From the NCBI GenBank assembly GCA_034440355.1, contig JAWXBY010000033.1:37850-101849 (forward strand): a stretch of 64,000 nt of DNA, given 5' to 3'. The DNA comes from Alphaproteobacteria bacterium. GTDB taxonomy: Bacteria > Pseudomonadota > Alphaproteobacteria > Micropepsales > Micropepsaceae. The notes under the pieces are model-generated. The model was not told where the DNA came from and did no database searches. It was given only the letters and a program-made list of their open reading frames with translations. Below, in pieces: positions 3,726-14,374 of the stretch. The translations under genes were made by a program, and so were the position numbers. The number at the start of each line of letters is the position of its first letter. The first letter of the stretch is position 1.

Positions 3726-5183
3726 CTAGTTGTTGTATTGCGCCGCAAGGCTTTCGAGGTCGGGTGCGGCGGCGATGTCGCGCATAAGGTCGACGACGCC
3801 TTGTAGCGACGGTCCGGGGCGCGCGCCCATGGCGATGCGCAGATACGGTTCGCCCATGCCCTCGTCCGGGATCACGGCTTCGAAGCGGTGGAAGCGGAAG
3901 CCGAAGCTGCCGCCGTGGTCGAATTGGATGCCGCGGCGGTCGGCCTCGCGCGTGAGGATGGATTCGAGTTGACGGTAGTCGTCGGCGTTTGCGTTTGGCA
4001 ACCTTGCGATGCTGTATGGCGATTGGGCCCAGGCGCAATCGGGCCGCGCGAATTGCGGGTGCAGGATTTGCGCGAACAGGCGGTTGCTCTTGGCCATCGC
4101 GTGCGCCAACAGGGCGTTGTTGTCGAACACCGCGCGGCTGTGGGCGCGTAGGTGCGGCATGCTCAAGAACCAGGGCACTTCGAGCGTCGATATTTCGTCG
4201 AGCGTCAGGCCGAGGCCTAGCACTGTGCGCAAGTGTCTGAGCGCCGCGCCGATGTCGGGTAAGAGCGCCGCGCGCGTGGCAATGTGGGTGTAGACCGACA
4301 GGATGCCGACGTTGACGAGTTCTAAGCCGGCCTGATCGAGCTTCAGGCCGGAGCGGATGTTGATCACGACGGGGGTGGCTTCGCCTGCAAGCGGTTCGAG
4401 TAGGCGGTTCAACGGGAAGGTTGGGCCGGTCAGCGTCGTGTCCAAGATTATGAGCGATGGGTCGGCCGCGAACATGTTCGGCCAGGCGCGATGGAAGGCG
4501 GCGAGGTCGAAGACGTTGACCGCTTCGTCAAAGAAGACCGGTTCGATCAGGATGGTGCGTGAAGGACGGTCGTGGGCCTTCTGCGCGTTGCCGACGGTTT
4601 TGCTGCGGCTCCAGTCGAGGGTTCGCCCGCAGACGGCGTTGAGCGCGTGCTGTGTTTCAAAATAATTGCCGGCGAACAGGAGGTGCGGGGAGTCGCGGTC
4701 CCAGAAGCCTGTCGAGTTCGCCCAATGCAAGACAGCGGCGAGGGCGCCTTGCGCGCTAGAGAATAGCACGTGGTCGGCGGACCACCCCGGCGGAACGCGC
4801 GTGGTGGCGGCGCAGCGCGCCTCGAGCCGGCGTGGTTCGATCGAGCGCTCGTAGCCGTAGACGATTGGCGCGCCGGACGGCGTCGAAACTGAAGCGGTTC
4901 GCACGGGCGACTTGATTTGCGAGTCGGCTGACTCGTGTGCGAAGCGCAACCAGCGTCGGCGCAGATCCCATGCCAACGATGCGAGCGCTGCTTCGGGCGT
5001 GAAGGTCGTGCATGCGGAGTCGTTCAGCTCGCGCACCGCGGTGAGCCACACACGGATCGACGGCCCGATTGCCGGGAAGTTGGATTCGAGCGTTTCACCC
5101 AGCTCTTGCAGCGCCAAGCGTTCGACTTCGCATCCGGGGTCTAAGAACTGTCGGAGGTGGCGCCGTGCCCTTGCCGCTCTCAT
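3726..5183 (-). CDS. Divergent fold-type-I PLP-dependent enzyme-like protein (Cys/Met-metabolism family-like)
   Basis: By-eye alignment to cystathionine synthase/lyase-type blocks: VLFSSAQGALAAVL, ILIEPVFFD, LIILDTTLTGP, INIRSGLKLDQ (candidate PLP Lys), HSRAVFDNNALLAHAM and FDHGGSFGF. The match is weak and needs an HMM search. Confidence 0.4.
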   Translation of the reverse strand: MRAARARRHLRQFLDPGCEVERLALQELGETLESNFPAIGPSIRVWLTAVRELNDSACTTFTPEAALASLAWDLRRRWLRFAHESADSQIKSPVRTASVSTPSGAPIVYGYERSIEPRRLEARCAATTRVPPGWSADHVLFSSAQGALAAVLHWANSTGFWDRDSPHLLFAGNYFETQHALNAVCGRTLDWSRSKTVGNAQKAHDRPSRTILIEPVFFDEAVNVFDLAAFHRAWPNMFAADPSLIILDTTLTGPTFPLNRLLEPLAGEATPVVINIRSGLKLDQAGLELVNVGILSVYTHIATRAALLPDIGAALRHLRTVLGLGLTLDEISTLEVPWFLSMPHLRAHSRAVFDNNALLAHAMAKSNRLFAQILHPQFARPDCAWAQSPYSIARLPNANADDYRQLESILTREADRRGIQFDHGGSFGFRFHRFEAVIPDEGMGEPYLRIAMGARPGPSLQGVVDLMRDIAAAPDLESLAAQYNN

Positions 5184-5265: not shown

Positions 5266-5290
5266 AACGCGGCGCGGGGCCGCGGGTTCC
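5266..5290 (-). promoter_or_regulatory. Sigma-EcfG-type promoter facing the PLP-like/GNAT/CN-hydrolase genes
   Basis: Minus strand GGAAC(5290-5286)-N16-CGTT(5269-5266), about 83 nt upstream of the ATG at 5183. Confidence 0.5.
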
Positions 5291-5302: not shown

Positions 5303-5327
5303 GGAACCGTTCTCGCTTTGTCGCGTT
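5303..5327 (+). promoter_or_regulatory. Sigma-EcfG-type promoter facing the 24-aa small ORF
   Basis: GGAAC(5303-5307)-N16-CGTT(5324-5327), 39 nt upstream of ATG 5366. Confidence 0.6.
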
Positions 5328-5511: not shown

Positions 5512-6150
5512 ATGGCTTCGCCTTTTCGGACTTTTTTAGACGGCGACGGCGTCACCACCGGGGAAGTGCACTGGGGTGCCGTTATCGCCGGTGTGATCGT
5601 TGCGCTGACGGGTCAGGTGTTGCTGACGCTGTTGGGCGCCGGGCTCGGCGCGACGTTCGACGCCACGCGCGGCGACGTGTTGAGCGGCGAGACCGTTGCC
5701 TGGGGTGCTTATGCTTGGTGGGCCGTCACAGGTATTGCCTGCGCGTTCGCCGGTGGTTGGACTGCCGGTTGGGTCGCGGGTTCCTACCCGTCGGTCGATC
5801 GCATCGAGGGTAGCTTCCAAGGGTTCTTGACGTGGGGCGTCTCGATTTTGGTCGTTGGCCTTTTGGTGCTGGGTTTGGCAAGCGGATCGGTGTTTGCGGC
5901 GCGCGTGGGCGGTCCGTTGGTGTCCGATTCAGCGGTCGTGGTTGCCGGGCAGACCTTATCGCCGGCCGAGCAAGACACGGCGCGTGATGCGGCGGCTCAA
6001 GCGGCGTTGTGGAGCTTCTTCGCGCTCATCATCGGTGCGGCGGGTTCTATCGGCGGGGGCTATCTGGGCGTTTCGCATGCGAAGCGCATGATCGCAGCCG
6101 GCAACAAGAAGCCCGGAACGGCGCGCAAGGGCGCCATGGCGACGGCGTAG
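5512..6150 (+). CDS. Gly/Ala-rich polytopic membrane protein, function unknown
   Basis: 212-aa ORF with an aggag RBS and several predicted TM helices (VIAGVIVALTGQVLLTLLGAGLG and others). Confidence 0.6.
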   Translation: MASPFRTFLDGDGVTTGEVHWGAVIAGVIVALTGQVLLTLLGAGLGATFDATRGDVLSGETVAWGAYAWWAVTGIACAFAGGWTAGWVAGSYPSVDRIEGSFQGFLTWGVSILVVGLLVLGLASGSVFAARVGGPLVSDSAVVVAGQTLSPAEQDTARDAAAQAALWSFFALIIGAAGSIGGGYLGVSHAKRMIAAGNKKPGTARKGAMATA

Positions 6151-6161
6151 GCCGCCGGCCT

Positions 6162-8291
6162 TTAACTAGTCGAGTAAGCGACCTCGGTGGGGCTCAAGCG
6201 TTTGAACTTGAGATCCACCGTGGTCGCGCCGACCCTCAAGCACGACACCGTCAACTGATCGACGCCTGCAGGGAGGTGTGGCCGTTCGACTTCGATCGTG
6301 CCGCGTGCGCCGTCGATCGTGATCCCTAAGCATGTTTGCAGCAGCAAGAACACGGCGCTGGCCGACCAGGCCTGCGGCAGGCACGCGACGGGGTAGGCGA
6401 CGGGGGACTCGCCACGCGAGCGGGGGAAGCCGCAATAGAGTTCGGGCATGCGCATATCGAAGCGTGTCGCGGCCTCGAACAAGCTGTTCAGAATCTGCAC
6501 CGGTCCGTCGCGTTCGCCGTAGCGGCCCATGCCTGCGGCGCACAAGGCCGTGTCGTGCGGCCAGACGGAGCCGTTGTGGTAGGACATCGGGTTGAAGCGC
6601 TGCTCGGTGTTGGCGAGCGTGCGGATGCCCCAGCCGGAGTTGAACGGTGCGGACAGCAGCGTGTCGATAACACTGCGTACGCGTTCCGCGCGGGCGACGC
6701 CGGTGAAGAGGACGTGGCCTGCGTTCGATGCGCGCACGCGGCAGAGTTGGCCGGCGCCGTCGATGGCGAGGCCGTAGAACGCGTGCTCATCCATCCAGAA
6801 GCGTTCGTCGATGTCGCGCATGAGGCGGGCGGCGGCGCTTTCCCAGCGGGCGGTGTTTGCGCCGTCGCTGCGTGCTTTCGCCAATTGCGCCATGCCGCGA
6901 AAGGCGGCGCAGGCGTAGGCTTGCACCTCCACCACGGCGATTGGCCCCGCCGGCATGCGGCCGTTGGCGTGGAAGATGGAGTCGGCCGAGTCCTTCCAGG
7001 CTTGGTTGGTGAGGCCGGTCGGCGAATTGTTCGGGTAGTCGAGAAGGCCGTCGCCGTTCGTGTCGCCGTACTCTTCCATCCATGCCGTTGCCGAGAGAAG
7101 CGCGGGCCAGATTTCATCGATCAGGCTTTGATCATTGGTGCGATGCGCGTAGGCCGCCGCGAGCATGATGAAGAGCGGTGTGGTGTCGACGCCCCCGTAG
7201 TACTGGCGGTAGGGGACTTCGTTGAGCAGGGCCATCTCACCCTTGCGCGTCTCGTGCATGATTTTACCGGGCGTCGCCGCGCGGAAGGTTGACGTCTCAT
7301 GCGCTTGGTTCGCAGCGAGAAATCTGAGCACGCCGCAGGCCAGCGATGGATCAAGCCACAGCATTTGCAGCGCGGTGATAATCGAGTCGCGGCCGAAGGG
7401 TGTCGAGAACCACGGGATGCCGGCGTAGGGGAACGGGCCGGTCGGCAGCGCCGTCGTCAGCAGCGTGACGTCGGCGCGCGATTTGTCGATCCAATCGTTG
7501 AAGAGGCGCGAGGATGTGCTGAGCGCGGCGCCGTGCCGCTCGCGCGTGCGCGTGTCGCGGTGAGCGGCGGCCACCGCCTTGCGGAAGCGCGCACGATCAG
7601 GCACTTCGCCGGTGTCGGGTCCCAGCCGGGCGAATATCTCATGGCTTCCGCGGGACGGCAGGGTCAACTGATACTCGGCGCGCGTGGTGGTGAAGCGCGA
7701 CGGTACCTCTGAAAAATGGATATGCATCGCGCGCGCAATGTCGTCGAGGCCGTCGTACTTTGTCGTGACCGCTTGGTCGGACAAGGTCGGCGTGTGAATG
7801 CGGCCGCGGTGCACACGTGCGAGACCGCGGACTTCGAACATGTCGACGAAGTCGGAGGCGAACTCGAACTCGATGGGCAGCACGACGTGATGGGCGCCGT
7901 AGTTCGACAGACGGATGTTCTCGAACAGGCAGTCGCGCCAGAGGAATTGCGTGCGATGCAGATGAATGACGCCCTCAGGGGTTCCTTGGCCACCGATCAC
8001 GGGCAACGGGCGGTTGGTGAGATGGGCCGAGAACAACACGTTGTCCTGTGCGATCGCCGAGCTCAGCAACGTCGGCGGCAAGCCGCCGATCGTCAGACGC
8101 CAGCGTGAGAGGACGCGCGTGTCGTTGGTGAACAAGCCGTCGGCGTTGCCGGTGATGTCGCCTAATGCGTCGACGACCATGTAGGTGTCGCCGTGCTTGA
8201 GCGAATAGTGGCGGCCGACACTGCGCGGGCCGCCGACGCCGGCGGTGTCGACGAGTTGGGCCGGTTCGACCTTGCCGTTGGTTTGTTGCAT
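6162..8291 (-). CDS. Amylo-alpha-1,6-glucosidase / glycogen-debranching-enzyme-like glycoside hydrolase (GDE_N_bis + GDE_C architecture)
   Basis: 709 aa. N-terminal block GDTYMVVDALGDI...GLFTNDTRVLSRW and a C-terminal (alpha/alpha)6-type block GIPWFSTPFGRDS...WPHD are typical of this family. Confidence 0.8.
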   Translation of the reverse strand: MQQTNGKVEPAQLVDTAGVGGPRSVGRHYSLKHGDTYMVVDALGDITGNADGLFTNDTRVLSRWRLTIGGLPPTLLSSAIAQDNVLFSAHLTNRPLPVIGGQGTPEGVIHLHRTQFLWRDCLFENIRLSNYGAHHVVLPIEFEFASDFVDMFEVRGLARVHRGRIHTPTLSDQAVTTKYDGLDDIARAMHIHFSEVPSRFTTTRAEYQLTLPSRGSHEIFARLGPDTGEVPDRARFRKAVAAAHRDTRTRERHGAALSTSSRLFNDWIDKSRADVTLLTTALPTGPFPYAGIPWFSTPFGRDSIITALQMLWLDPSLACGVLRFLAANQAHETSTFRAATPGKIMHETRKGEMALLNEVPYRQYYGGVDTTPLFIMLAAAYAHRTNDQSLIDEIWPALLSATAWMEEYGDTNGDGLLDYPNNSPTGLTNQAWKDSADSIFHANGRMPAGPIAVVEVQAYACAAFRGMAQLAKARSDGANTARWESAAARLMRDIDERFWMDEHAFYGLAIDGAGQLCRVRASNAGHVLFTGVARAERVRSVIDTLLSAPFNSGWGIRTLANTEQRFNPMSYHNGSVWPHDTALCAAGMGRYGERDGPVQILNSLFEAATRFDMRMPELYCGFPRSRGESPVAYPVACLPQAWSASAVFLLLQTCLGITIDGARGTIEVERPHLPAGVDQLTVSCLRVGATTVDLKFKRLSPTEVAYSTS

Positions 8292-8293
8292 TC

Positions 8294-9364
8294 CTACGCC
8301 GTCTTGAGGGCTGCTCTCGGCTCGTGCGTTTGGTGAAGCAAGCGATCGTACAGGTGGAGGTAGCTGCGCGCCATTACCTCAGCGGAAAACCTTCGTTCGA
8401 AGACGTGACGTATTTTTGCACGACTGAGCGTGCGGGCGTCAGCGACCGCAGCGACGGCTTCGTCGATTGAGTTGACGAGAATGCCGGTGACGCCATCGTC
8501 GATGACCTCACGGACCGAGCCGCAGGGCCAGGCGATCACCGGTGTGCCGCACGCCATCGCCTCGATCATCACGAGGCCGAAGGGTTCGGGCCAATCGATG
8601 GGGAACAATACCGCCATTGCGCCGGAGAGAAACTCAGGCTTTTGCTGGTCGGAGATTTCGCCGACGAATTCGACCGGAGCGTCTTTCATGAGCGGCGCGA
8701 TTTGGTCACGGAAATAGGCCTCATCGACGCCGTCGACCTTGGCGGCGATGCGCAGTTTGATGCCGGTTCGTTTTGCGATTTCGATCGCGCGGTCTGGGCG
8801 CTTCTCGGGCGAAATGCGTCCGAGGAATGCGAGGTAGTCGCGCGGCTTGTCGGTGCGCGCCGCAGGAGCCAGCAGATCGCTGGGCAAGCCGTGGTGCACG
8901 GTTGCGGCCCAATTCGCGTTGGGCAAAGCTTTGCGCTGATTGTGTGAGATCGACACCAGCGGGAATTCGGGCCAGCGATCGTAGACGCCGCTCAAGTCCT
9001 TGAGGTCGAGCCGGCCGTGCAAGGTTGTGACCGTGCGGTTCGCCATACGTTCGAACATGGGGAAGTGCAGCAGATCCACGTGGAAGTGGAGAATGTCGAA
9101 ATCGTCGGCGCGTTTTGCAACTTCGTGCAGCATCGAGAGGTGTGACGCCACGTCGGACTTCAGTGGCGCAGGATCCAGTCGTATCGACTGATCGCGGACG
9201 GGTATCAACTTCGCCTTCGTGACGGCGTCCGCTGCCGCGAACAAGCTAACGTCGTGACCGAGATCGACCAGCGCGTCCGTGACCCACGAGACGACACGCT
9301 CCGTGCCGCCATAGAGCCGCGGCGGAACGGCTTCGTAGAGCGGTGCGATTTGAGCAATCTTCAT
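8294..9364 (-). CDS. Glycosyltransferase family 4 (GT-B, group 1)
   Basis: ORF 8294-9436 trimmed to ATG 9364 (MKIAQIAPLYEAVPPRLYGGTERVV). C-terminal EPFGLVMIEAMACGTPV motif. The stop lies 3 nt before the glucosidase start. Confidence 0.85.
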   Translation of the reverse strand: MKIAQIAPLYEAVPPRLYGGTERVVSWVTDALVDLGHDVSLFAAADAVTKAKLIPVRDQSIRLDPAPLKSDVASHLSMLHEVAKRADDFDILHFHVDLLHFPMFERMANRTVTTLHGRLDLKDLSGVYDRWPEFPLVSISHNQRKALPNANWAATVHHGLPSDLLAPAARTDKPRDYLAFLGRISPEKRPDRAIEIAKRTGIKLRIAAKVDGVDEAYFRDQIAPLMKDAPVEFVGEISDQQKPEFLSGAMAVLFPIDWPEPFGLVMIEAMACGTPVIAWPCGSVREVIDDGVTGILVNSIDEAVAAVADARTLSRAKIRHVFERRFSAEVMARSYLHLYDRLLHQTHEPRAALKTA

Positions 9365-9451
9365 GATTTTTGGCCGTGTGAGAACCAGGGATACAACGCG
9401 GGCGCAGCGATGCAGGTTCCGAACGACAAGGCGCATGGGTAGTTAAGTCCG

Positions 9452-11155
9452 CTATGGCTGCGCGGGCGTGGTGTAACGGCTCAAAATAGCCTCGCTTACG
9501 CGCTTGCGGCTTTCGTGGGCGGCGATCGCGCCGTTGCGTTCGACGGTGGCGACTTCGTCGGCAAGCTCGTCGTTCTTGATGACTGTGCGCATCCATTGCG
9601 AATAGTCGCCGGCGCGCAAGTGATGGTCCCAGGTTGCGTCGTCGACGCCTGCGCCGATCTGCACGAACAGCATCAGGTTTTGTGCACGGAGATTGAGCGC
9701 GCCCTTCGGGCCTTTGAAGTAGAAGCTGCGATCGGGCCCGAGTTCGCCTTCCGCGTATTTGCGGCTGTGACGTTTGCGGGCCTGGCGCGGCTTTATCGGT
9801 TTTATCGCTTGTGGCCGGGCGGCTTCGTCGCAGCGCCAAAACAGGACTTCGTCGTCTTTAGGCTTGGTGACCGGTGGCGTGGCGATGCCGAGCGCTGCGC
9901 AGCACGCGGCGATGACTTGTTCAGCGCCGTCGCCCAGGGCCACGACAGCTTCCAAGGTCTTTAACGCTTGGATCTGCACGGATTCCGGATGCACAGTGAT
10001 AAGGACGGTCGCTGGCAGATCGCTGGGTGAGGTTTGTTCGAGACCGCCGTGTTCGGACGGCAGGACATGATGCGCTTCGTCGACGATGAGCCAGTGGGGA
10101 CGACCGGACTTCAGGCGCAACGCGCCGATCTTGCCGAGCAGTTTGGCGAAGAACGCGGGCCTGTCCGCAGCTGCGACCGCCAGCGCGCAGACGACGACAT
10201 TGACGTCGGGGCGGCGCAGGAGTTCGAAGACTTCGTTCTCCGTCGGGGCGGTTTTTGCGTTGCCGACGCATACCGCGCCGTCGAGATCCAGATAGTCGCC
10301 TTCCGGATCAAGGACGCAGAATTGTTGGCCCTTCTCAACCATGCGCTCGGTGAGTGCGGTGGCGATCGTGGATTTGCCGATGCCGGATTTGCCGGCTATC
10401 AGCACGCTGTCCGTGGGGGTTAAGCAGACGTTCGCGCCTTTGCCGGTGACGCCGATGGCGATGCCATGGCGGGCGAGGGGGACGATGGCGGCGTCTTTGG
10501 CGGCTAGCAGGGACATTAGTTCGACGACGCCCGCACCGCGTTCGCCTTGAGTGACGAAGTCGGCGGTTTCCTTCAGCATCGGCAATGCGTTGGCGACGGC
10601 GACCGCGCAACCGCAGGCGCGCAGAAAGGCGTGATCGTTCTCCGCGTCGCCGACGGCCACGATGTTGTGAGGCGATAGTTCGAGTTCGGCGAGCGCCGCG
10701 GCCAGGCCCGACGCCTTGTTCACACCGGCGGGCAGCACCATGACGGCGCCTTTGTTGAATATGATCTGAAGTTCGAGACCCATATCGCGGATTGTGTTGA
10801 GGACCACGCCTTCGTTCGGCTCCCACGTGGCGACGATCGAATGGCCGACCGAGAGAGGCGTAACGTTATTGGCCCTAAGCGCTTCGACGAATTGCGGCGG
10901 CGGCGCCGGTGCGATGGCATGAATCTCTTCGTTCGCGGGATCGTAGATGACCGCGCCGTTTTCGGCGACGACGCGATCGAAGATGCTGAGTTCGGTGAAC
11001 ACCTTTTTTAGATCTTCAAGTTCGCGGCCGGTGACCAGAATCAGCTTGCGGCCGGTGCGCTTGAACTGGCGCATCGCTTCGATCGTCTCCTCGGCGACGA
11101 TTCCGAACTCTGCGATCGTGCCGTCATAGTCGGTGGCGAGAGCGATGAAGAACAA
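9452..11155 (-). CDS. Fusion protein: N-terminal HAD-IIB phosphatase domain + C-terminal HerA/DUF87-like P-loop ATPase
   Basis: HAD motifs are LATDYDGT, VTGR and VGDAENDHAFL. ATPase has Walker A GKSGIGKST, VLDPEGDY and Walker B WLIVDEAHH. Start is set to TTG 11155 (aaggaa RBS) because the EcfG -10 box is only 18 nt from the alternative ATG at 11200. Confidence 0.75.
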   Translation of the reverse strand: MFFIALATDYDGTIAEFGIVAEETIEAMRQFKRTGRKLILVTGRELEDLKKVFTELSIFDRVVAENGAVIYDPANEEIHAIAPAPPPQFVEALRANNVTPLSVGHSIVATWEPNEGVVLNTIRDMGLELQIIFNKGAVMVLPAGVNKASGLAAALAELELSPHNIVAVGDAENDHAFLRACGCAVAVANALPMLKETADFVTQGERGAGVVELMSLLAAKDAAIVPLARHGIAIGVTGKGANVCLTPTDSVLIAGKSGIGKSTIATALTERMVEKGQQFCVLDPEGDYLDLDGAVCVGNAKTAPTENEVFELLRRPDVNVVVCALAVAAADRPAFFAKLLGKIGALRLKSGRPHWLIVDEAHHVLPSEHGGLEQTSPSDLPATVLITVHPESVQIQALKTLEAVVALGDGAEQVIAACCAALGIATPPVTKPKDDEVLFWRCDEAARPQAIKPIKPRQARKRHSRKYAEGELGPDRSFYFKGPKGALNLRAQNLMLFVQIGAGVDDATWDHHLRAGDYSQWMRTVIKNDELADEVATVERNGAIAAHESRKRVSEAILSRYTTPAQP

Positions 11156-11217
11156 TTGGCGTTCCTTGTGGGGGGGCGGGCTCAGGCGACGGCGCCGCAC
11201 TGGGCAGGTTCGTCATC

Positions 11218-11242
11218 AACGCGAGGGATCGGCGCGAGTTCC
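11218..11242 (-). promoter_or_regulatory. Sigma-EcfG-type promoter facing the HAD-ATPase/GT4/glucosidase operon
   Basis: Minus strand GGAAC(11242-11238)-N16-CGTT(11221-11218). Confidence 0.55.
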
Positions 11243-11343: not shown

Positions 11344-11369
11344 GGAACTCCTCGGTTCCGTCGAGCGTT
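11344..11369 (+). promoter_or_regulatory. Sigma-EcfG-type promoter facing the KGG stress-protein gene
   Basis: GGAAC(11344-11348)-N17-CGTT(11366-11369), 40 nt upstream of ATG 11409. Confidence 0.7.
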
Positions 11370-11408: not shown

Positions 11409-11678
11409 ATGACGAACACCACCGATCTCCGTATGGACTCACTCGTTCATGGGACGCCGAGTGCTGGTGCACCGATTCTCGTGAAGCGAGGGTTTGCGGC
11501 GATGGACCGCGGTCGCCAGCGCGACATCGCCTCCAAGGGCGGATCTAGCGTGCCGGTCAGCAAGCGCAGCTTTTCGCGTGATCACGAACTGGCGGTGCGG
11601 GCCGGCCGCAAGGGCGGTCTGGCGCGTATGCGTGCCGCTCAGGCGAGCCGCGACGGCGACAACGCTTCCACTCAGTAA
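11409..11678 (+). CDS. KGG-repeat general stress protein
   Basis: 89 aa. RGFAAMDRGRQRDIASKGG and RAGRKGG repeats match the stress-induced KGG motif family. Confidence 0.8.
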   Translation: MTNTTDLRMDSLVHGTPSAGAPILVKRGFAAMDRGRQRDIASKGGSSVPVSKRSFSRDHELAVRAGRKGGLARMRAAQASRDGDNASTQ

Positions 11679-11683
11679 GGCGT

Positions 11684-12250
11684 TCAGGCGCCGGGCTCGT
11701 ACCAGAGCACGATGTTGCCGTTCTTGAACGTCCGAGTTTTCGTCAGCTTCAGATTTAGTTTGCCTTCGATGCCGGAAAAGAGCGTCTTGCCGCCGCCGAG
11801 CGCGATTGGGTGGACGACGATCTGAGCGGTGTCGATCAGGCTTGCGTCGGCGAGTTGGGCGACGATGCTGCCGCTGCCAAGCGTGACGAGGTCGGGACCG
11901 GGCGTGTTCTTCAGCTTGCGAATTTCCGTGGCGAGGTCGCCTTTGATGACGTGCGTATTCTGCCACGTCGCGTGGCTTAGCGTCCGCGAGACCACGTATT
12001 TCTGCATCTCGTTCATGCTCTTGGCGACAGTGGGCATCATTTGCGCGGCGGCCGGCGTGGGCCAGAAGCCTGCCATCATCTCGTAGGTGACGCGGCCGAA
12101 GAGCAGGGCGCCGTCGCCGCTGGCGTTGGCGGCGGTGAAGTCGTTCCATTCTTTGTCATCGGGCGATTGATGCGCCCAGCTCATGTCGCTTCTCGCGTCG
12201 GCGAAGAAGCCGTTGAGCGTGACATTCATGAAGATGTTGAGTTTGCGCAT
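11684..12250 (-). CDS. Dihydrofolate reductase family protein (RibD C-terminal-like)
   Basis: MRKLNIFMNVTLNGFFAD...GSGSIVAQL...LWYEP pattern typical of this family. Confidence 0.75.
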   Translation of the reverse strand: MRKLNIFMNVTLNGFFADARSDMSWAHQSPDDKEWNDFTAANASGDGALLFGRVTYEMMAGFWPTPAAAQMMPTVAKSMNEMQKYVVSRTLSHATWQNTHVIKGDLATEIRKLKNTPGPDLVTLGSGSIVAQLADASLIDTAQIVVHPIALGGGKTLFSGIEGKLNLKLTKTRTFKNGNIVLWYEPGA

Positions 12251-12387
12251 GGTTAGGCCTCCGCAACGAGGGTGGGACCGGCGTTGCAGCGTGCGGATCG
12301 ATCCGTCGAGCTGTCAAGCGTGCGGCCAGCCAATGTGATCGATACGGGCGGTTGATCTGGGCGGCGGGGCATGTTCTGTGCGACGCC

Positions 12388-13182
12388 ATGGATGGTTTGA
12401 CCGACAAACAAGTTGCCGCGTTCGTTCGCGACGGTGTTGTCAGGATTGACGGCGCCTTTCCGCGTTTGGCGGCCGACGTCTGTCGCGCGGTGCTTTGGCG
12501 GGATACGGGGGCCAACCCTTCCGATTCTTCGACGTGGACTAAGGCTGTCGTTCGGTTGGGCAATTACTACGACCCGACGTTCGTCGGCACGGCCAACACG
12601 CCGGTACTGCATGCGGCGTTCGATCGGCTTGTCGGGCGCGGGCGCTGGGTGCCGCCGGCGAGTGTGGGTACGTTCCCCGTTCGATTTCCGTCGCCGGAGG
12701 ATCCCGGCGATGCCGGATGGCATATCGATGCCAGCTTTCCCCCGCCGGGTGGCGACGCGCAGGACTATATGTCTTGGCGCGTGAACGTGAACTCGAGGGG
12801 GCGGGCATTGTTGCTGCTGCTGCTGTTTTCGGATGTCGGTCCGGACGATGCGCCGACGCGGATTCGGTTGGGCTCCCATCGCGATGTGGCGCGTAGACTT
12901 GCCGGTGTCGGCGAGTCCGGCCTGAACGTCCTTGATTTGCAGGATGTGTACACAGCGACGGAAGGGCTGCCGGAGGTGTTCGCGACCGGTGACGCGGGGA
13001 CGGCATATCTATGCCATCCGTTTCTGGTTCACGCGGCGCAGCCGCATCGCGGGACGCGCCCGCGATTTATGGCGCAACCGCCGTTGTTTCCGGCGCAGCC
13101 GCTGAGTTTGGCGCGTGAGGCCGGCGACCACTCTCCCGTCGAACGGGCGATCAGATTGGCTTTGGACATGGAGCGGGCGTGA
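12388..13182 (+). CDS. Phytanoyl-CoA dioxygenase (PhyH) family Fe(II)/2OG oxygenase
   Basis: Trimmed to ATG 12388 (MDGLTDKQVAAFVRDGVV). WHID motif and CHPFLVHAAQP. Confidence 0.65.
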   Translation: MDGLTDKQVAAFVRDGVVRIDGAFPRLAADVCRAVLWRDTGANPSDSSTWTKAVVRLGNYYDPTFVGTANTPVLHAAFDRLVGRGRWVPPASVGTFPVRFPSPEDPGDAGWHIDASFPPPGGDAQDYMSWRVNVNSRGRALLLLLLFSDVGPDDAPTRIRLGSHRDVARRLAGVGESGLNVLDLQDVYTATEGLPEVFATGDAGTAYLCHPFLVHAAQPHRGTRPRFMAQPPLFPAQPLSLAREAGDHSPVERAIRLALDMERA

Positions 13183-13535
13183 TGGCGAAGCAGGTTACGA
13201 TCTATGGCATCAAGAATTGCGACACGATGAAGAAAGCGCGCGCTTGGTTGGACGAGCACGGCGTCGCTTATTCGTTTCATGACTATAAGAGCGCGGGGAT
13301 CGAGCGCGACGTGCTGGAAGGCTGGGTGAAGGAGGCGGGGTGGGAAATTGTGCTGAACCGCGCCGGCACGACGTTTCGCTCGTTGCCCGACGACAAGAAG
13401 GACGGGCTGAACGAGAAGAAGGCTGTCGCGTTGATGCTTGCGCAGCCTTCAATGATCAAACGGCCGGTGTTGATTGCGGGTAAGAAGTTGCTCGTCGGGT
13501 TCAAGCCCGAGCAATATCGGGCGCTGTTCGGCTGA
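13182..13535 (+). CDS. ArsC/Spx-family reductase (YffB-like)
   Basis: MAKQVTIYGIKNCDTMKKARAWLDEHGV...MIKRPVL. The ATG overlaps the upstream TGA (TGATG). Confidence 0.85.
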   Translation: MAKQVTIYGIKNCDTMKKARAWLDEHGVAYSFHDYKSAGIERDVLEGWVKEAGWEIVLNRAGTTFRSLPDDKKDGLNEKKAVALMLAQPSMIKRPVLIAGKKLLVGFKPEQYRALFG

Positions 13536-13537
13536 CG

Positions 13538-13957
13538 CTAGCGCAGGTGTTCCCATAGCTTGCGTTCTTCGGCGATGCGTTCGTGTTCTTCGCCGTTGAA
13601 ATCGCTCCGCGCGACGACGCCGATAACGGTGCCTGCCCGGGTCAGCGGCACGTGATGGATGCCGCAATCCCACATCAGGCGCAGCGCTTCGATCGTCGTG
13701 CGCTCGGGTGCGATGGTGACGAGGTCGGTCGTCATCACGTCTTGCAGACGCAGATCGGCGGGCTGTCCGGCGGCGGCAATAACGGCGACGGCGTCACTGG
13801 CGGTGAAGATGCCGACCAGTGCGCTGTTTTCGTCCGTGACAAGGACGCAGCCGGTTTGGCGATCGCGCATCTTTTCACACGCGGTTTTTACGGTCGCGTC
13901 GAAGGGCATGGTCAGTGTGTCTTGATTTTCGACAAGTTCGATGAGTTTGCGCGCCAT
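13538..13957 (-). CDS. CBS domain pair protein
   Basis: 139 aa containing two CBS-like repeats (VMTTDLVTI..., GCVLVTDENSALVGIFT...). Confidence 0.8.
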   Translation of the reverse strand: MARKLIELVENQDTLTMPFDATVKTACEKMRDRQTGCVLVTDENSALVGIFTASDAVAVIAAAGQPADLRLQDVMTTDLVTIAPERTTIEALRLMWDCGIHHVPLTRAGTVIGVVARSDFNGEEHERIAEERKLWEHLR

Positions 13958-14038: not shown

Positions 14039-14374
14039 CTAAATCGATTTTGCGCCCAGCGTTTTGCGCCAATGAGCGGTGCGCTCCTTCAGCAGCGTGT
14101 CGCGATCGAACGATGGTTCTTCGTCCGTCATGCGTTCCAGGACGTCGAACGTGACGTTTTCGGCGCCGTGGTCGTTCCAGGCTTTCTGCAGGTCCTTGTG
14201 CTCGCAGCTGCCCAGGCGCAGCGCGAACCAGAGGCGGTTCTGGATCGCTTGGAGATTGGGCGATTGACCGACCCACGCCTCGGCTGAGGCCGCGCAGCGC
14301 ACGGCGAAGATTCCGATCGGGATCTTGCGTTCTTTGTAGGCCGCGAGGGCCGCTTTCTTGTTGGCGCTTTTCAT
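14039..14374 (-). CDS. Small GIY-YIG nuclease family protein
   Basis: 111 aa. The pattern AAYKERKIPIGIFAVRC...WVGQSPNL...RLWFALRLG...LQKAW matches short GIY-YIG proteins. Confidence 0.65.
   Translation of the reverse strand: MKSANKKAALAAYKERKIPIGIFAVRCAASAEAWVGQSPNLQAIQNRLWFALRLGSCEHKDLQKAWNDHGAENVTFDVLERMTDEEPSFDRDTLLKERTAHWRKTLGAKSI

Follow-up and report, generated by a model that had tools for sequence, protein, structure and literature searches.

Three stress-linked genes in an alphaproteobacterial locus: a predicted alpha-1,2-glucoside synthase-hydrolase pair beside a separately conserved HAD-IIB/HerA-like fusion protein

Why should a phosphatase domain joined to a translocase-type ATPase be encoded next to a glycosyltransferase and a glycoside hydrolase? 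The question is raised by positions 6162–11242 of a 64,000-nucleotide (nt) stretch of contig JAWXBY010000033.1 from an alphaproteobacterium of the Micropepsaceae (assembly GCA_034440355.1), hereafter called the window. Three minus-strand open reading frames (ORFs) were called there: 6162–8291 (709 amino acids), 8294–9436 and 9452–11200, the last two in their longest forms. The ORF calls bear out the initial annotation of this DNA in describing three minus-strand genes with gaps of 87 nt (fusion gene to GT4 gene, 9365–9451) and 2 nt (GT4 stop codon to hydrolase gene), and searches with the Pfam and NCBIfam profiles reproduced all four of its domain calls, HAD-IIB and HerA-like for the fusion, GT4 for the glycosyltransferase and GDE-type for the hydrolase. 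That annotation had read the three genes as one operon behind one stress promoter, making a phosphorylated glycoside, dephosphorylating it and recycling it. The reading that we prefer, and to which we give a probability of about 0.6, is that the region holds two independently conserved general-stress units, each with an EcfG-type promoter of its own and adjacent by chance of lineage: Unit B, a pair of enzymes predicted to act on alpha-1,2-glucosides, and Unit A, the fusion, which may be an ATP-gated phosphatase.

Three sets of loci show which of these genes travel together. The set centred on the fusion consisted of 80 loci, taken from at least 561 genome loci found, whose homologues are 51–59% identical to the window protein; they belong to Mesorhizobium and other Alphaproteobacteria, Burkholderiales, Nostocales, Chloroflexota, Acidobacteriota, Planctomycetota and Ignavibacteriales. 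The set centred on GT4 contained 80 loci with close homologues (56–68% identical) from Caulobacterales, Xanthomonadales, Burkholderiales, Rhizobiales, Sphingomonadales, Pseudomonas and others. A third set of 49 loci was centred on relatives of the cyanobacterial enzyme TeGSS, the glucosylsucrose synthase of Thermosynechococcus elongatus, from taxa including Coleofasciculus (cyanobacteria), Chloroflexia, Ktedonobacterales, Bacteroidota, Acidobacteriota and Bdellovibrionia. It can be seen that a hydrolase gene of the family GH176, to which the window hydrolase is assigned below, was present in 69 of the 80 GT4-centred loci, in 67 of them on the strand of GT4 and for the most part only a few hundred bases away, as well as in 23 of the 49 TeGSS-centred loci. 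The fusion gene was found near none of these 129 glycosyltransferase genes (0/80 and 0/49, respectively). Seen from its own side, it stood alone in 79 of 80 loci, with no GT4, TreT or Ots gene nearby. The single locus with GT4 and GH176 genes within 8 kb of the fusion was that of Mesorhizobium sp. CC13 (L057), where the GT4-GH176 pair is divergent from the fusion gene and is followed by otsA. No neighbour of the fusion gene was common to the 32 loci from outside Mesorhizobium. Because of these counts in the fusion-, GT4- and TeGSS-centred loci, GT4 and GH176 are to be regarded as a conserved module and the fusion as a separate gene. GT4 followed by GH176 is a conserved pair across phyla, with the hydrolase gene directly downstream in most of the related genomes; the fusion, which the initial annotation had placed with them in one operon, is not part of it (0/129 and 1/80). 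All-against-all clustering of the ORFs of the 80 fusion-centred loci was also searched for conserved partners of the fusion; it returned only antisense shadow ORFs and synteny specific to Mesorhizobium, and the large ORFs near the fusion that appeared conserved were low-complexity artefacts.

The promoter motifs of the window point in the same direction as these counts. The window was scanned for the EcfG-type pattern GGAAC-N16/17-CGTT (consensus as used in PMC6599016), and 12 matches were found where 1.27 were expected, a number reached by none of 100 shuffled sequences; the window is thus a dense general-stress island. The reverse complement of 11218–11242, 5′ of the fusion gene, reads GGAAC-N16-CGTT, and a further motif lies in the 87-nt gap in front of the GT4 gene (Table 1). 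A stress promoter at 11218–11242, divergent from that of a KGG gene, had already been proposed, and the exact motif, the enrichment in the window and a counterpart in a related contig agree with it. This metagenomic contig (L081) carries a fusion orthologue 84% identical to that of the window. Its genes are arranged in the order KGG (minus strand), fusion (plus strand), a gene for a DUF3309 protein of 52 amino acids on the opposite strand (9746–9904, minus strand), GT4 and GH176 (both plus strand). The four units, KGG, fusion, DUF3309 and GT4-GH176, are each preceded by a GGAAC-N17-CGTT motif of their own whose placement corresponds to that in the window, namely at 7964–7989 for the fusion, 9944–9969 for DUF3309 and 9985–10010 for GT4. 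Since an antisense gene lies between them and each has its own motif, GT4-GH176 in this contig is not part of the fusion transcript by design. The DUF3309 gene is absent from the gap at 9365–9451; the window has lost this gene but retains the promoter motif of GT4. A single three-gene operon with one promoter, as first proposed, is therefore contradicted by the internal motif at 9395–9420, by the antisense gene of the related contig and by the rarity of the fusion near GT4 genes. Among the homologues, the strict motif was found upstream of 7 of 80 fusion genes (0.8 expected) and the relaxed motif upstream of 11 (1.7 expected); a relaxed motif with the −10 element NGTT preceded 14 of 80 GT4 genes (1.0 expected), mostly in Caulobacterales.

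The product of the GT4 gene matches Glycos_transf_1 of Pfam (9e-27) and, over its full length, the structure 7FG9 (E 1.5e-84, 46% identity), in agreement with the initial assignment to GT4. Structure 7FG9 is TeGSS, the product of tll1591, an alpha-1,2-glucosyltransferase that extends free sucrose without a phosphorylated intermediate and whose products build up under salt and heat stress (PMC9909042). Its catalytic residues Tyr18 and Arg179 are kept in the window enzyme (Y18 and R183), as are K184 (K188) and the UDP ligands; W254 and E256 are conserved as well. In length, catalytic residues and UDP-binding residues, the window GT4 resembles both TeGSS and the Nostoc enzyme alr1000 (PMC9909042), and stress-linked expression is to be expected in both groups. 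The acceptor site carries the substitutions W10Y, Y70S, E74S, Y97L, T119D and N122L relative to TeGSS, in which Trp10 stacks on the fructose moiety (PMC9909042). By its sequence, then, the window GT4 is classed as a member of the glucosylsucrose-synthase (alpha-1,2-glucosyltransferase) family. The initial annotation had invoked the two-step logic of a GT4 synthase and a HAD phosphatase; since TeGSS works on sucrose that carries no phosphate and forms no phosphorylated intermediate, the rationale for a HAD partner falls away.

The hydrolase was initially described as GDE-like. It matches GDE_N_bis of Pfam (2e-55), an MGH1-like (alpha/alpha)6 domain and GDE_C, and can be placed more sharply by its match to structure 7VMA (E 1.8e-80), which is TgAMY, the founding member of GH176. 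The GH176 enzyme of Arthrobacter humicola A8F5 is a strict inverting alpha-1,2-glucosidase acting on kojibiose to kojitetraose and on selaginose, with R286/D287, H335/E336, W425/D427, Y565/H566/W571, a base glutamate (E611 or E616) and Q634/W636 making up its catalytic acid, base and fixer and its kojibiose-binding residues; the chain length that it prefers is set by how long loops 3 and 4 are (bioRxiv 10.64898/2026.07.01.735942). Placed by motif and spacing, and not by direct alignment to A8F5, the catalytic and kojibiose-site residues appear in the window hydrolase as the collinear motifs FGRD299, MHE345, WKD432, YHNGSVW571, PELY616 and PQAW639. The window protein thus has the two-domain architecture of A8F5 and TgAMY together with all the described catalytic and kojibiose residues, and on these grounds it is a GH176 enzyme and a predicted alpha-1,2-glucosidase. 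TgAMY also keeps every kojibiose-binding residue, and its alpha-1,6 assignment has been questioned (bioRxiv 10.64898/2026.07.01.735942). By analogy with the two characterised families, we hold with fair confidence that GT4 makes, and GH176 hydrolyses, one and the same rare alpha-1,2 linkage. What survives of the glycoside scheme first proposed is its outline, a glycoside that protects against stress and a hydrolase that recycles it, now in the form of an alpha-1,2 GT4 homologue and GH176; its phosphatase step does not stand. No mention of a gene cluster was found in a search of the A8F5 preprint (bioRxiv 10.64898/2026.07.01.735942), and the pairing with a glucosylsucrose-synthase-type GT4 appears to be undescribed. 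As a separate observation, pSymB of Sinorhizobium meliloti (L227; CP050512.1, 539602–543150) carries a GT4 gene whose product is 61% identical to that of the window; the GH176 region downstream of it is unannotated and split into two overlapping ORFs (7507–8310 and 8231–9235 of the locus), so that this strain may have only a pseudogene there.

Which sugar serves as primer can be approached through the neighbouring genes. In 14 cyanobacterial loci, including Thermosynechococcus, a gene for sucrose-phosphate synthase (SPS) lies directly downstream of that for the glucosylsucrose synthase (GSS). The proteobacterial relatives differ from TeGSS and alr1000 in this respect: SPS was found in none of the 80 GT4-centred loci, and instead otsA and/or otsB lay within 8 kb in 11 of the 80, nearly always on the same strand. 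A contiguous otsB-otsA-GT4-GH176 arrangement occurs in Pseudoxanthomonas (L120), GH176 adjoins otsA in two further loci (L128 and L134), and the order in Mesorhizobium sp. CC13 is GT4-GH176-otsA. In other Alphaproteobacteria, EcfG controls the synthesis of trehalose. The linkage to otsA and otsB, seen in a minority of genomes, suggests that the proteobacterial clade probably extends trehalose, not sucrose, to give selaginose-type oligosaccharides. There is a precedent for glucose-extended trehalose as a stress protectant, since fungal ascospores contain trehalose-based oligosaccharides as compatible solutes (PMC4371660). The fungal compounds, however, are alpha-1,6-linked and made by unrelated enzymes, whereas the putative proteobacterial series would be alpha-1,2-linked. 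Six Coleofasciculus loci (L174–L177, L180 and L203) were observed to hold a cluster of GSS homologue, SPS and GH176 genes, which joins primer synthesis, extension and trimming.

The fusion protein consists of an N-terminal HAD-IIB domain, a HerA-like ATPase domain and a conserved tail. The first of these matches Hydrolase_3 of Pfam (5.9e-30) and the HAD-SF-IIB model TIGR01484 of NCBIfam (92.8 bits, cutoff 41.8), and its sequence matches in the PDB are archaeal-type HAD-IIB phosphatases such as 1wr8 (1.8e-15). All four HAD motifs, DYDGT (I), VTGR (II), the lysine of NKG/NKA (III) and GDAENDH (IV), were invariant in 32 homologues, and the HAD-IIB call of the initial annotation is thereby well founded. 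A C2B cap between motifs II and III is supported through the TIGR01484 subfamily model and the IIB relatives in the PDB. The substrate-specific HAD equivalog models all scored far under their cutoffs; weak matches were obtained with S6PP (4.7e-12), with the SPP subfamily (1.8e-24) and with MPGP-type families. The domain thus shares its four motifs and its IIB subfamily with the capped phosphatases PH1421 (1WR8), TA0175, OtsB, sucrose-phosphate phosphatase and MPGP, but unlike these it is covalently joined to an ATPase. The initial annotation knew of no characterised example of such a join, and none was found in the searchable literature.

For the second domain, the motifs GKSGIGKST, VLDPEGDY and WLIVDEAHH on which the HerA-like call had been based were all found in the translation, and Walker A (GKSGIGKST), DPEGDY and Walker B (WLIVDEAHH, with DEAHH) were invariant in the 32 homologues. 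The Pfam DUF87/HerA profile matched at 3.5e-7 (31 bits, cutoff 23.2), over 63 residues that correspond to profile positions 9–69 of 220. An AlphaFold model of residues 226–568 had a mean pLDDT (predicted local distance difference test) of 82.9, and a Foldseek search with it returned ATPases of the FtsK/HerA superfamily only, with a probability of 1.00; the top matches were SIR2-HerA (best E 2.5e-9), B204 of STIV2 (target-normalised TM score 0.70), HerA of S. solfataricus, VirB4, TcpA, FtsK and EssC. With the profile over its cutoff and the fold of the model in agreement, the call of a C-terminal HerA-like P-loop ATPase is correct at the level of the superfamily. The P-loop core, Walker A, DPxGxY and the hhhhDE type of Walker B are shared with the FtsK/HerA ATPases (4D2I, 8WIV/8WOC, 4KFT, VirB4 and FtsK). 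In contrast to HerA proper, the fusion has a minimal core of about 200 residues, has neither a nuclease nor a Sir2 partner and lacks the HAS-barrel, for which no family match was found, the N-terminal 225 residues being HAD-IIB instead. Arginines conserved in ERP and GRPHW among the 32 homologues are candidate arginine fingers.

This architecture is neither rare nor local. More than 8000 word-sharing candidates were obtained, all at E≤1e-3, and the best 120 were all 564–628 residues long; identity exceeds 50% across at least 8 phyla. When the C-terminal 343 residues were compared with representatives at 50% identity, 2036 matched at E≤1e-3, and 360 of these reached E≤1e-30. Representatives of full length were almost all of about 560–580 residues with the match at about residues 228–570, and because length and match position are so nearly uniform the fusion architecture can be considered fixed. 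The family is annotated at source only as "HAD-IIB family hydrolase". The fusion that had been noted as unexplained keeps its standing as one with no characterised example, while its scope is widened to a large conserved family. Two members, P0143 (855 amino acids) and P0132, were seen to carry an additional C-terminal hemerythrin HHE cation-binding domain, a hint that one sub-branch senses oxygen, iron or redox state.

Behind the ATPase core lies a block that was strikingly conserved in 32 sequences: RKRHxRKYAEG...SFYFRGP...LNLRAQN...GVDDxTWxHHLRxGDYSxWF. Modelled separately, the last 139 residues of the fusion come out confidently as a helical bundle, for which the top PDB match in Foldseek was OrfY of Thermoproteus tenax (4CSO; probability 0.75–0.85, a weak E of 2.3, root-mean-square deviation 1.9–4.1 Å over about 80 columns). 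OrfY was also the only natural match when a profile of the tail was compared with the PDB (a weak E of 1). The Pfam family DUF5752 scored 12.9 bits on the tail, below its cutoff of 23 (E 0.072), while the matched OrfY segment itself scores 9e-19 against DUF5752. A comparison of the tail with eight DUF5752 proteins by hhalign gave a probability of 75.5% over 86 columns, with a pairwise E of 2.4e-5. DUF5752 is not among the 25 commonest families listed for fusion members, which are all P-loop or HAD families. In the alignment, SFYF...GDYSxWFRxxIKDdELA of the tail corresponds to PFKF...NDFARWVGEElxDeELA of the first OrfY repeat, and by sequence and model a homology between the tail and this repeat of OrfY/DUF5752 is probable.

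OrfY itself has two repeats, is free-standing and is coupled to TreT in 9 of 9 loci, whereas the fusion has one repeat and normally no GT4 neighbour. In these nine loci (L218–L226; e.g. 4851–6724 in L221 and 4878–6796 in L222), from Thermoproteales, NC10, Nitrospirae and Eisenbacteria, a DUF5752 gene is followed directly, often with overlap, by that of a TreT-type GT4 trehalose synthase, and OtsA or TPSP is encoded nearby in six of them. The likeness of the tail to DUF5752 and the linkage of DUF5752 to TreT together give a tentative link of the fusion to trehalose-type sugar metabolism. A protein search for further OrfY relatives returned only 2 fragments, and no paper on DUF5752 or OrfY was found in the searchable literature. 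Kouril and colleagues are said to have placed orfY upstream of treT in 2008, with a function that was not known. A HAD-IIB gene near the OrfY-TreT genes of Pyrobaculum was considered as a relative of the HAD domain of the fusion and was rejected, as no specific similarity was found.

How might the two units work? What the sequences show is the structure of the genes, the identity of the domains, the promoter motifs and the way these are conserved; the specificities of the enzymes, trehalose as the primer and whatever activity the fusion has are inferred. Unit B would comprise the promoter at 9395–9420 and the GT4 and GH176 genes, as an alpha-1,2-glucoside synthase and hydrolase. The GT4 would take glucose from UDP-glucose and attach it at O2 of the glucose unit in an existing non-reducing disaccharide, probably trehalose in proteobacteria, and would then extend its own product, as the cyanobacterial homologue does with sucrose, to give selaginose-type oligosaccharides; GH176 would take the alpha-1,2-glucosyl units off again. 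Such a route would have no phosphorylated intermediate, and hence no phosphatase. Unit A would comprise the promoter at 11218–11242 and the gene for the HAD-IIB domain with its intact motifs, the minimal FtsK/HerA-fold ATPase and the OrfY-like tail. It may form an ATP-dependent oligomer, possibly a ring like those of its structural relatives, in which the nucleotide state might gate a phosphatase for small molecules of the sugar-phosphate type, and the tail might tie the protein to the metabolism of disaccharide (trehalose-type) stress sugars. Domain identity, promoter type and the weak tail homology lead us, with low confidence, to consider the fusion an ATP-gated, probably oligomeric sugar-phosphate phosphatase in stress-sugar metabolism.

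Several observations weigh against this two-unit reading or parts of it. The fusion adjoins GT4-GH176 in two different arrangements, one in the clade of the window and the divergent one in strain CC13, and this may be more than coincidence. OrfY is encoded directly upstream of a GT4 gene, that of TreT, and in the window the fusion gene is likewise upstream of GT4. On the minus strand, the stretch from the fusion gene to GT4 holds no terminator-like site; because the three genes share one strand and no such site separates them, co-transcription by read-through from the fusion gene into GT4-GH176 is possible. The strict EcfG motif was found upstream of GT4 homologues in none of 80 genomes, and no EcfG-type motif was found near the S. 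meliloti pSymB locus, nor any link of it to published RpoE2 data. As regards the acceptor, the window GT4 departs from TeGSS at 5 of the 11 rim residues that were listed for that enzyme (PMC9909042). The linkage to trehalose-primer genes is limited to 12 of 81 loci, and no otsA, otsB or SPS gene was found in the window. The original report on TgAMY, with which GH176 was founded, made it an alpha-1,6-debranching enzyme, which the A8F5 preprint disputes (bioRxiv 10.64898/2026.07.01.735942). Finally, the homology of the tail to DUF5752 falls under the family thresholds and is only probable.

These observations bear most on two other ways of reading the locus, both of which make the fusion a partner of the sugar genes. 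The short gaps on one strand, the missing terminator-like site and the weak matches of the HAD domain to sucrose-phosphatase and MPGP-type families (S6PP and the SPP subfamily) would suit the single operon proposed at the outset, in which GT4 makes a phosphorylated glycoside, the HAD-IIB domain dephosphorylates it by the logic known for sucrose or mannosylfructose, and the GDE-like hydrolase recycles the product. We nevertheless consider it very improbable: the closest characterised GT4 takes free sucrose, the HAD domain is far under the cutoffs of the specific phosphatase equivalogs, the fusion is missing from all 129 GT4- and TeGSS-centred loci and alone in 79 of its own 80, and an internal promoter motif and, in L081, an antisense gene come between it and GT4. 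A weaker form of the same idea is kept alive by local coupling. Here the fusion would work with GT4-type synthases, its tail perhaps docking on GT4 in the way presumed for OrfY and TreT, or else its HAD domain supplying the acceptor from trehalose-6-phosphate, sucrose-6-phosphate or glucose-6-phosphate. The probable homology of the tail to DUF5752/OrfY, the position of DUF5752 in 9 of 9 loci directly upstream of, and overlapping, the gene for TreT, itself a GT4 enzyme, the two arrangements beside GT4-GH176, the presence of otsA in L057 as well and the EcfG-type promoters on both units all argue for coupling. Yet the tail homology is weak, the depositors of the OrfY structure called it a transcription factor, and 79 of the 80 fusion loci contain no GT4, TreT or Ots gene, so that we regard coupling, in both forms together, as unlikely. 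The most complete version, with the fusion as a regulator-enzyme of a kind not recognised before, which docks by its tail on GT4 synthases, whose ring ATPase gates the phosphatase and which controls the making of stress sugars in the general stress response, while GT4-GH176 makes and trims trehalose-primed alpha-1,2-gluco-oligosaccharides, is somewhat less likely again.

It might also be asked whether the adjacency to sugar genes is coincidental and the fusion acts elsewhere. A HerA/FtsK-type translocase with a phosphatase that heals 3′-phosphate ends could serve DNA repair in desiccation or stationary phase. In T4 PNKP a phosphatase of the HAD type acts on DNA ends; the structural neighbours of the ATPase (HerA-NurA, FtsK, B204) are all DNA or protein translocases or packaging ATPases, the conserved tail linker RKRHxRKY is strongly basic, OrfY bears its transcription-factor label in the PDB and Ku is among EcfG regulons. 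A HAD-IIB cap, however, normally limits access to small substrates, the nearest sequence relatives of the HAD domain are small-molecule phosphatases, the HAS-barrel of true HerA is missing, and no nuclease, ligase or Ku gene was a conserved neighbour in the 32 loci from outside Mesorhizobium; a nucleic-acid role thus has only a slender chance of being right. That the top structural matches are HerA proteins of defence systems, and that PADLOC models match weakly (mad8 2e-9, HerA 2e-4), could instead point to anti-phage defence, with the HAD phosphatase as an effector on a HerA scaffold in the manner of SIR2-HerA or DUF4297-HerA. These PADLOC matches span only about 70 residues around Walker A, and, unlike fast-evolving defence genes, the fusion is more than 50% identical across phyla, sits in stable chromosomal contexts with no defence-island neighbours and has a stress-sigma promoter upstream; defence seems to us hardly credible. 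The capped IIB type, the cross-phylum conservation and the want of matching neighbours make both of these roles less likely than a place in stress-sugar metabolism, and two separate stress units remain the reading that we favour.

The features of the region are collected in Table 1. For the GT4 gene the most plausible start is ATG 9364 (MKIAQIAPLYE...), in keeping with all homologues. For the fusion gene the most likely start is TTG 11155, with the Shine-Dalgarno sequence AAGGAA 6 nt upstream; this agrees with a 100%-identical database gene call (P0001) and with the homologue N-termini MYF(L/I)ALATDYDGT.

Table 1. Genes, protein domains and EcfG-type motifs of the region, in window coordinates
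Feature	Position	Strand	Remarks
Fusion gene: HAD-IIB / FtsK-HerA-like ATPase / OrfY(DUF5752)-like	9452..11155	-	567 aa (amino acids) from TTG 11155; longest ORF to GTG 11200
HAD-IIB phosphatase domain	10481..11155	-	About residues 1-225 of the fusion; Pfam, NCBIfam and PDB matches, invariant motifs
Minimal FtsK/HerA-superfamily P-loop ATPase domain	9866..10480	-	DUF87 match, AlphaFold model, Foldseek
C-terminal tail of the fusion	9455..9865	-	Basic linker RKRHSRKYAEG, beta element SFYF, helical bundle; OrfY/DUF5752-like
GT4 glycosyltransferase, glucosylsucrose-synthase family	8294..9364	-	356 aa from ATG 9364; PDB 7FG9 match
GH176 glycoside hydrolase, predicted alpha-1,2-glucosidase	6162..8291	-	GDE_N_bis and (alpha/alpha)6 barrel; PDB 7VMA match
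EcfG-type motif GGAAC-N16-CGTT 5′ of the fusion gene	11218..11242	-	Exact motif
Second EcfG-type motif GGAAC-N17-CGTT, in the 87-nt gap	9395..9420	-	30 nt upstream of the GT4 ATG
EcfG-type motif of the divergent KGG gene	11344..11369	+	Motif scan; same arrangement in L081
KGG stress-repeat gene, divergent neighbour	11409..11678	+	Pfam KGG 7e-11; same arrangement in L081

Beyond the KGG gene, positions 11684–13957 encode a RibD_C-domain reductase (minus strand), a PhyH-like dioxygenase (plus strand), an ArsC/Spx-family protein (plus strand) and a CBS-pair protein (minus strand); the KGG, ArsC and CBS genes are syntenic with L081. On the other side of the region a divergent pair of EcfG-type motifs is found at 5266–5290 (minus strand) and 5303–5327 (plus strand), which is kept in L081 at 14096–14158. 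It is flanked by two genes without a Pfam match, 3726–5183 (minus strand, 485 amino acids) and 5512–6150 (plus strand, 212 amino acids), the product of the latter being Gly/Ala-rich and membrane-like. A palindromic stretch at 442–469, at the start of an amidohydrolase ORF (476–2080), fits the EcfG-type pattern on both strands at once, either by chance or perhaps as a divergent site that both directions share.

The domains and enzyme families discussed here are all known already. In the searchable literature, which is incomplete, we found no description of the pairing of a GSS-type GT4 with GH176 and its switch of partner from SPS to otsAB, of GT4-GH176 under EcfG-type promoters, or of the HAD / HerA-like / OrfY-like architecture. 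Two enzyme families that were characterised recently and separately, the glucosylsucrose synthase in 2022 and the GH176 alpha-1,2-glucosidase in a 2026 preprint, form a gene pair across phyla, and the primer genes beside it change from those for sucrose (SPS) in cyanobacteria to those for trehalose (otsA/otsB) in proteobacteria. On this basis, alpha-1,2-glucosylated trehalose or related oligosaccharides are predicted to build up under stress in many proteobacteria that live in soil or with plants. If true, these would be a class of bacterial stress protectant so far undescribed in proteobacteria, and the misleading label "glycogen debranching enzyme" on thousands of GH176 genes would be corrected. 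Current models of the two families do not explain why a small-molecule phosphatase should be joined to a translocase-type ATPase; a link to OrfY, which is possible, would offer the first handle both on the fusion and on OrfY, the unexplained partner of TreT.

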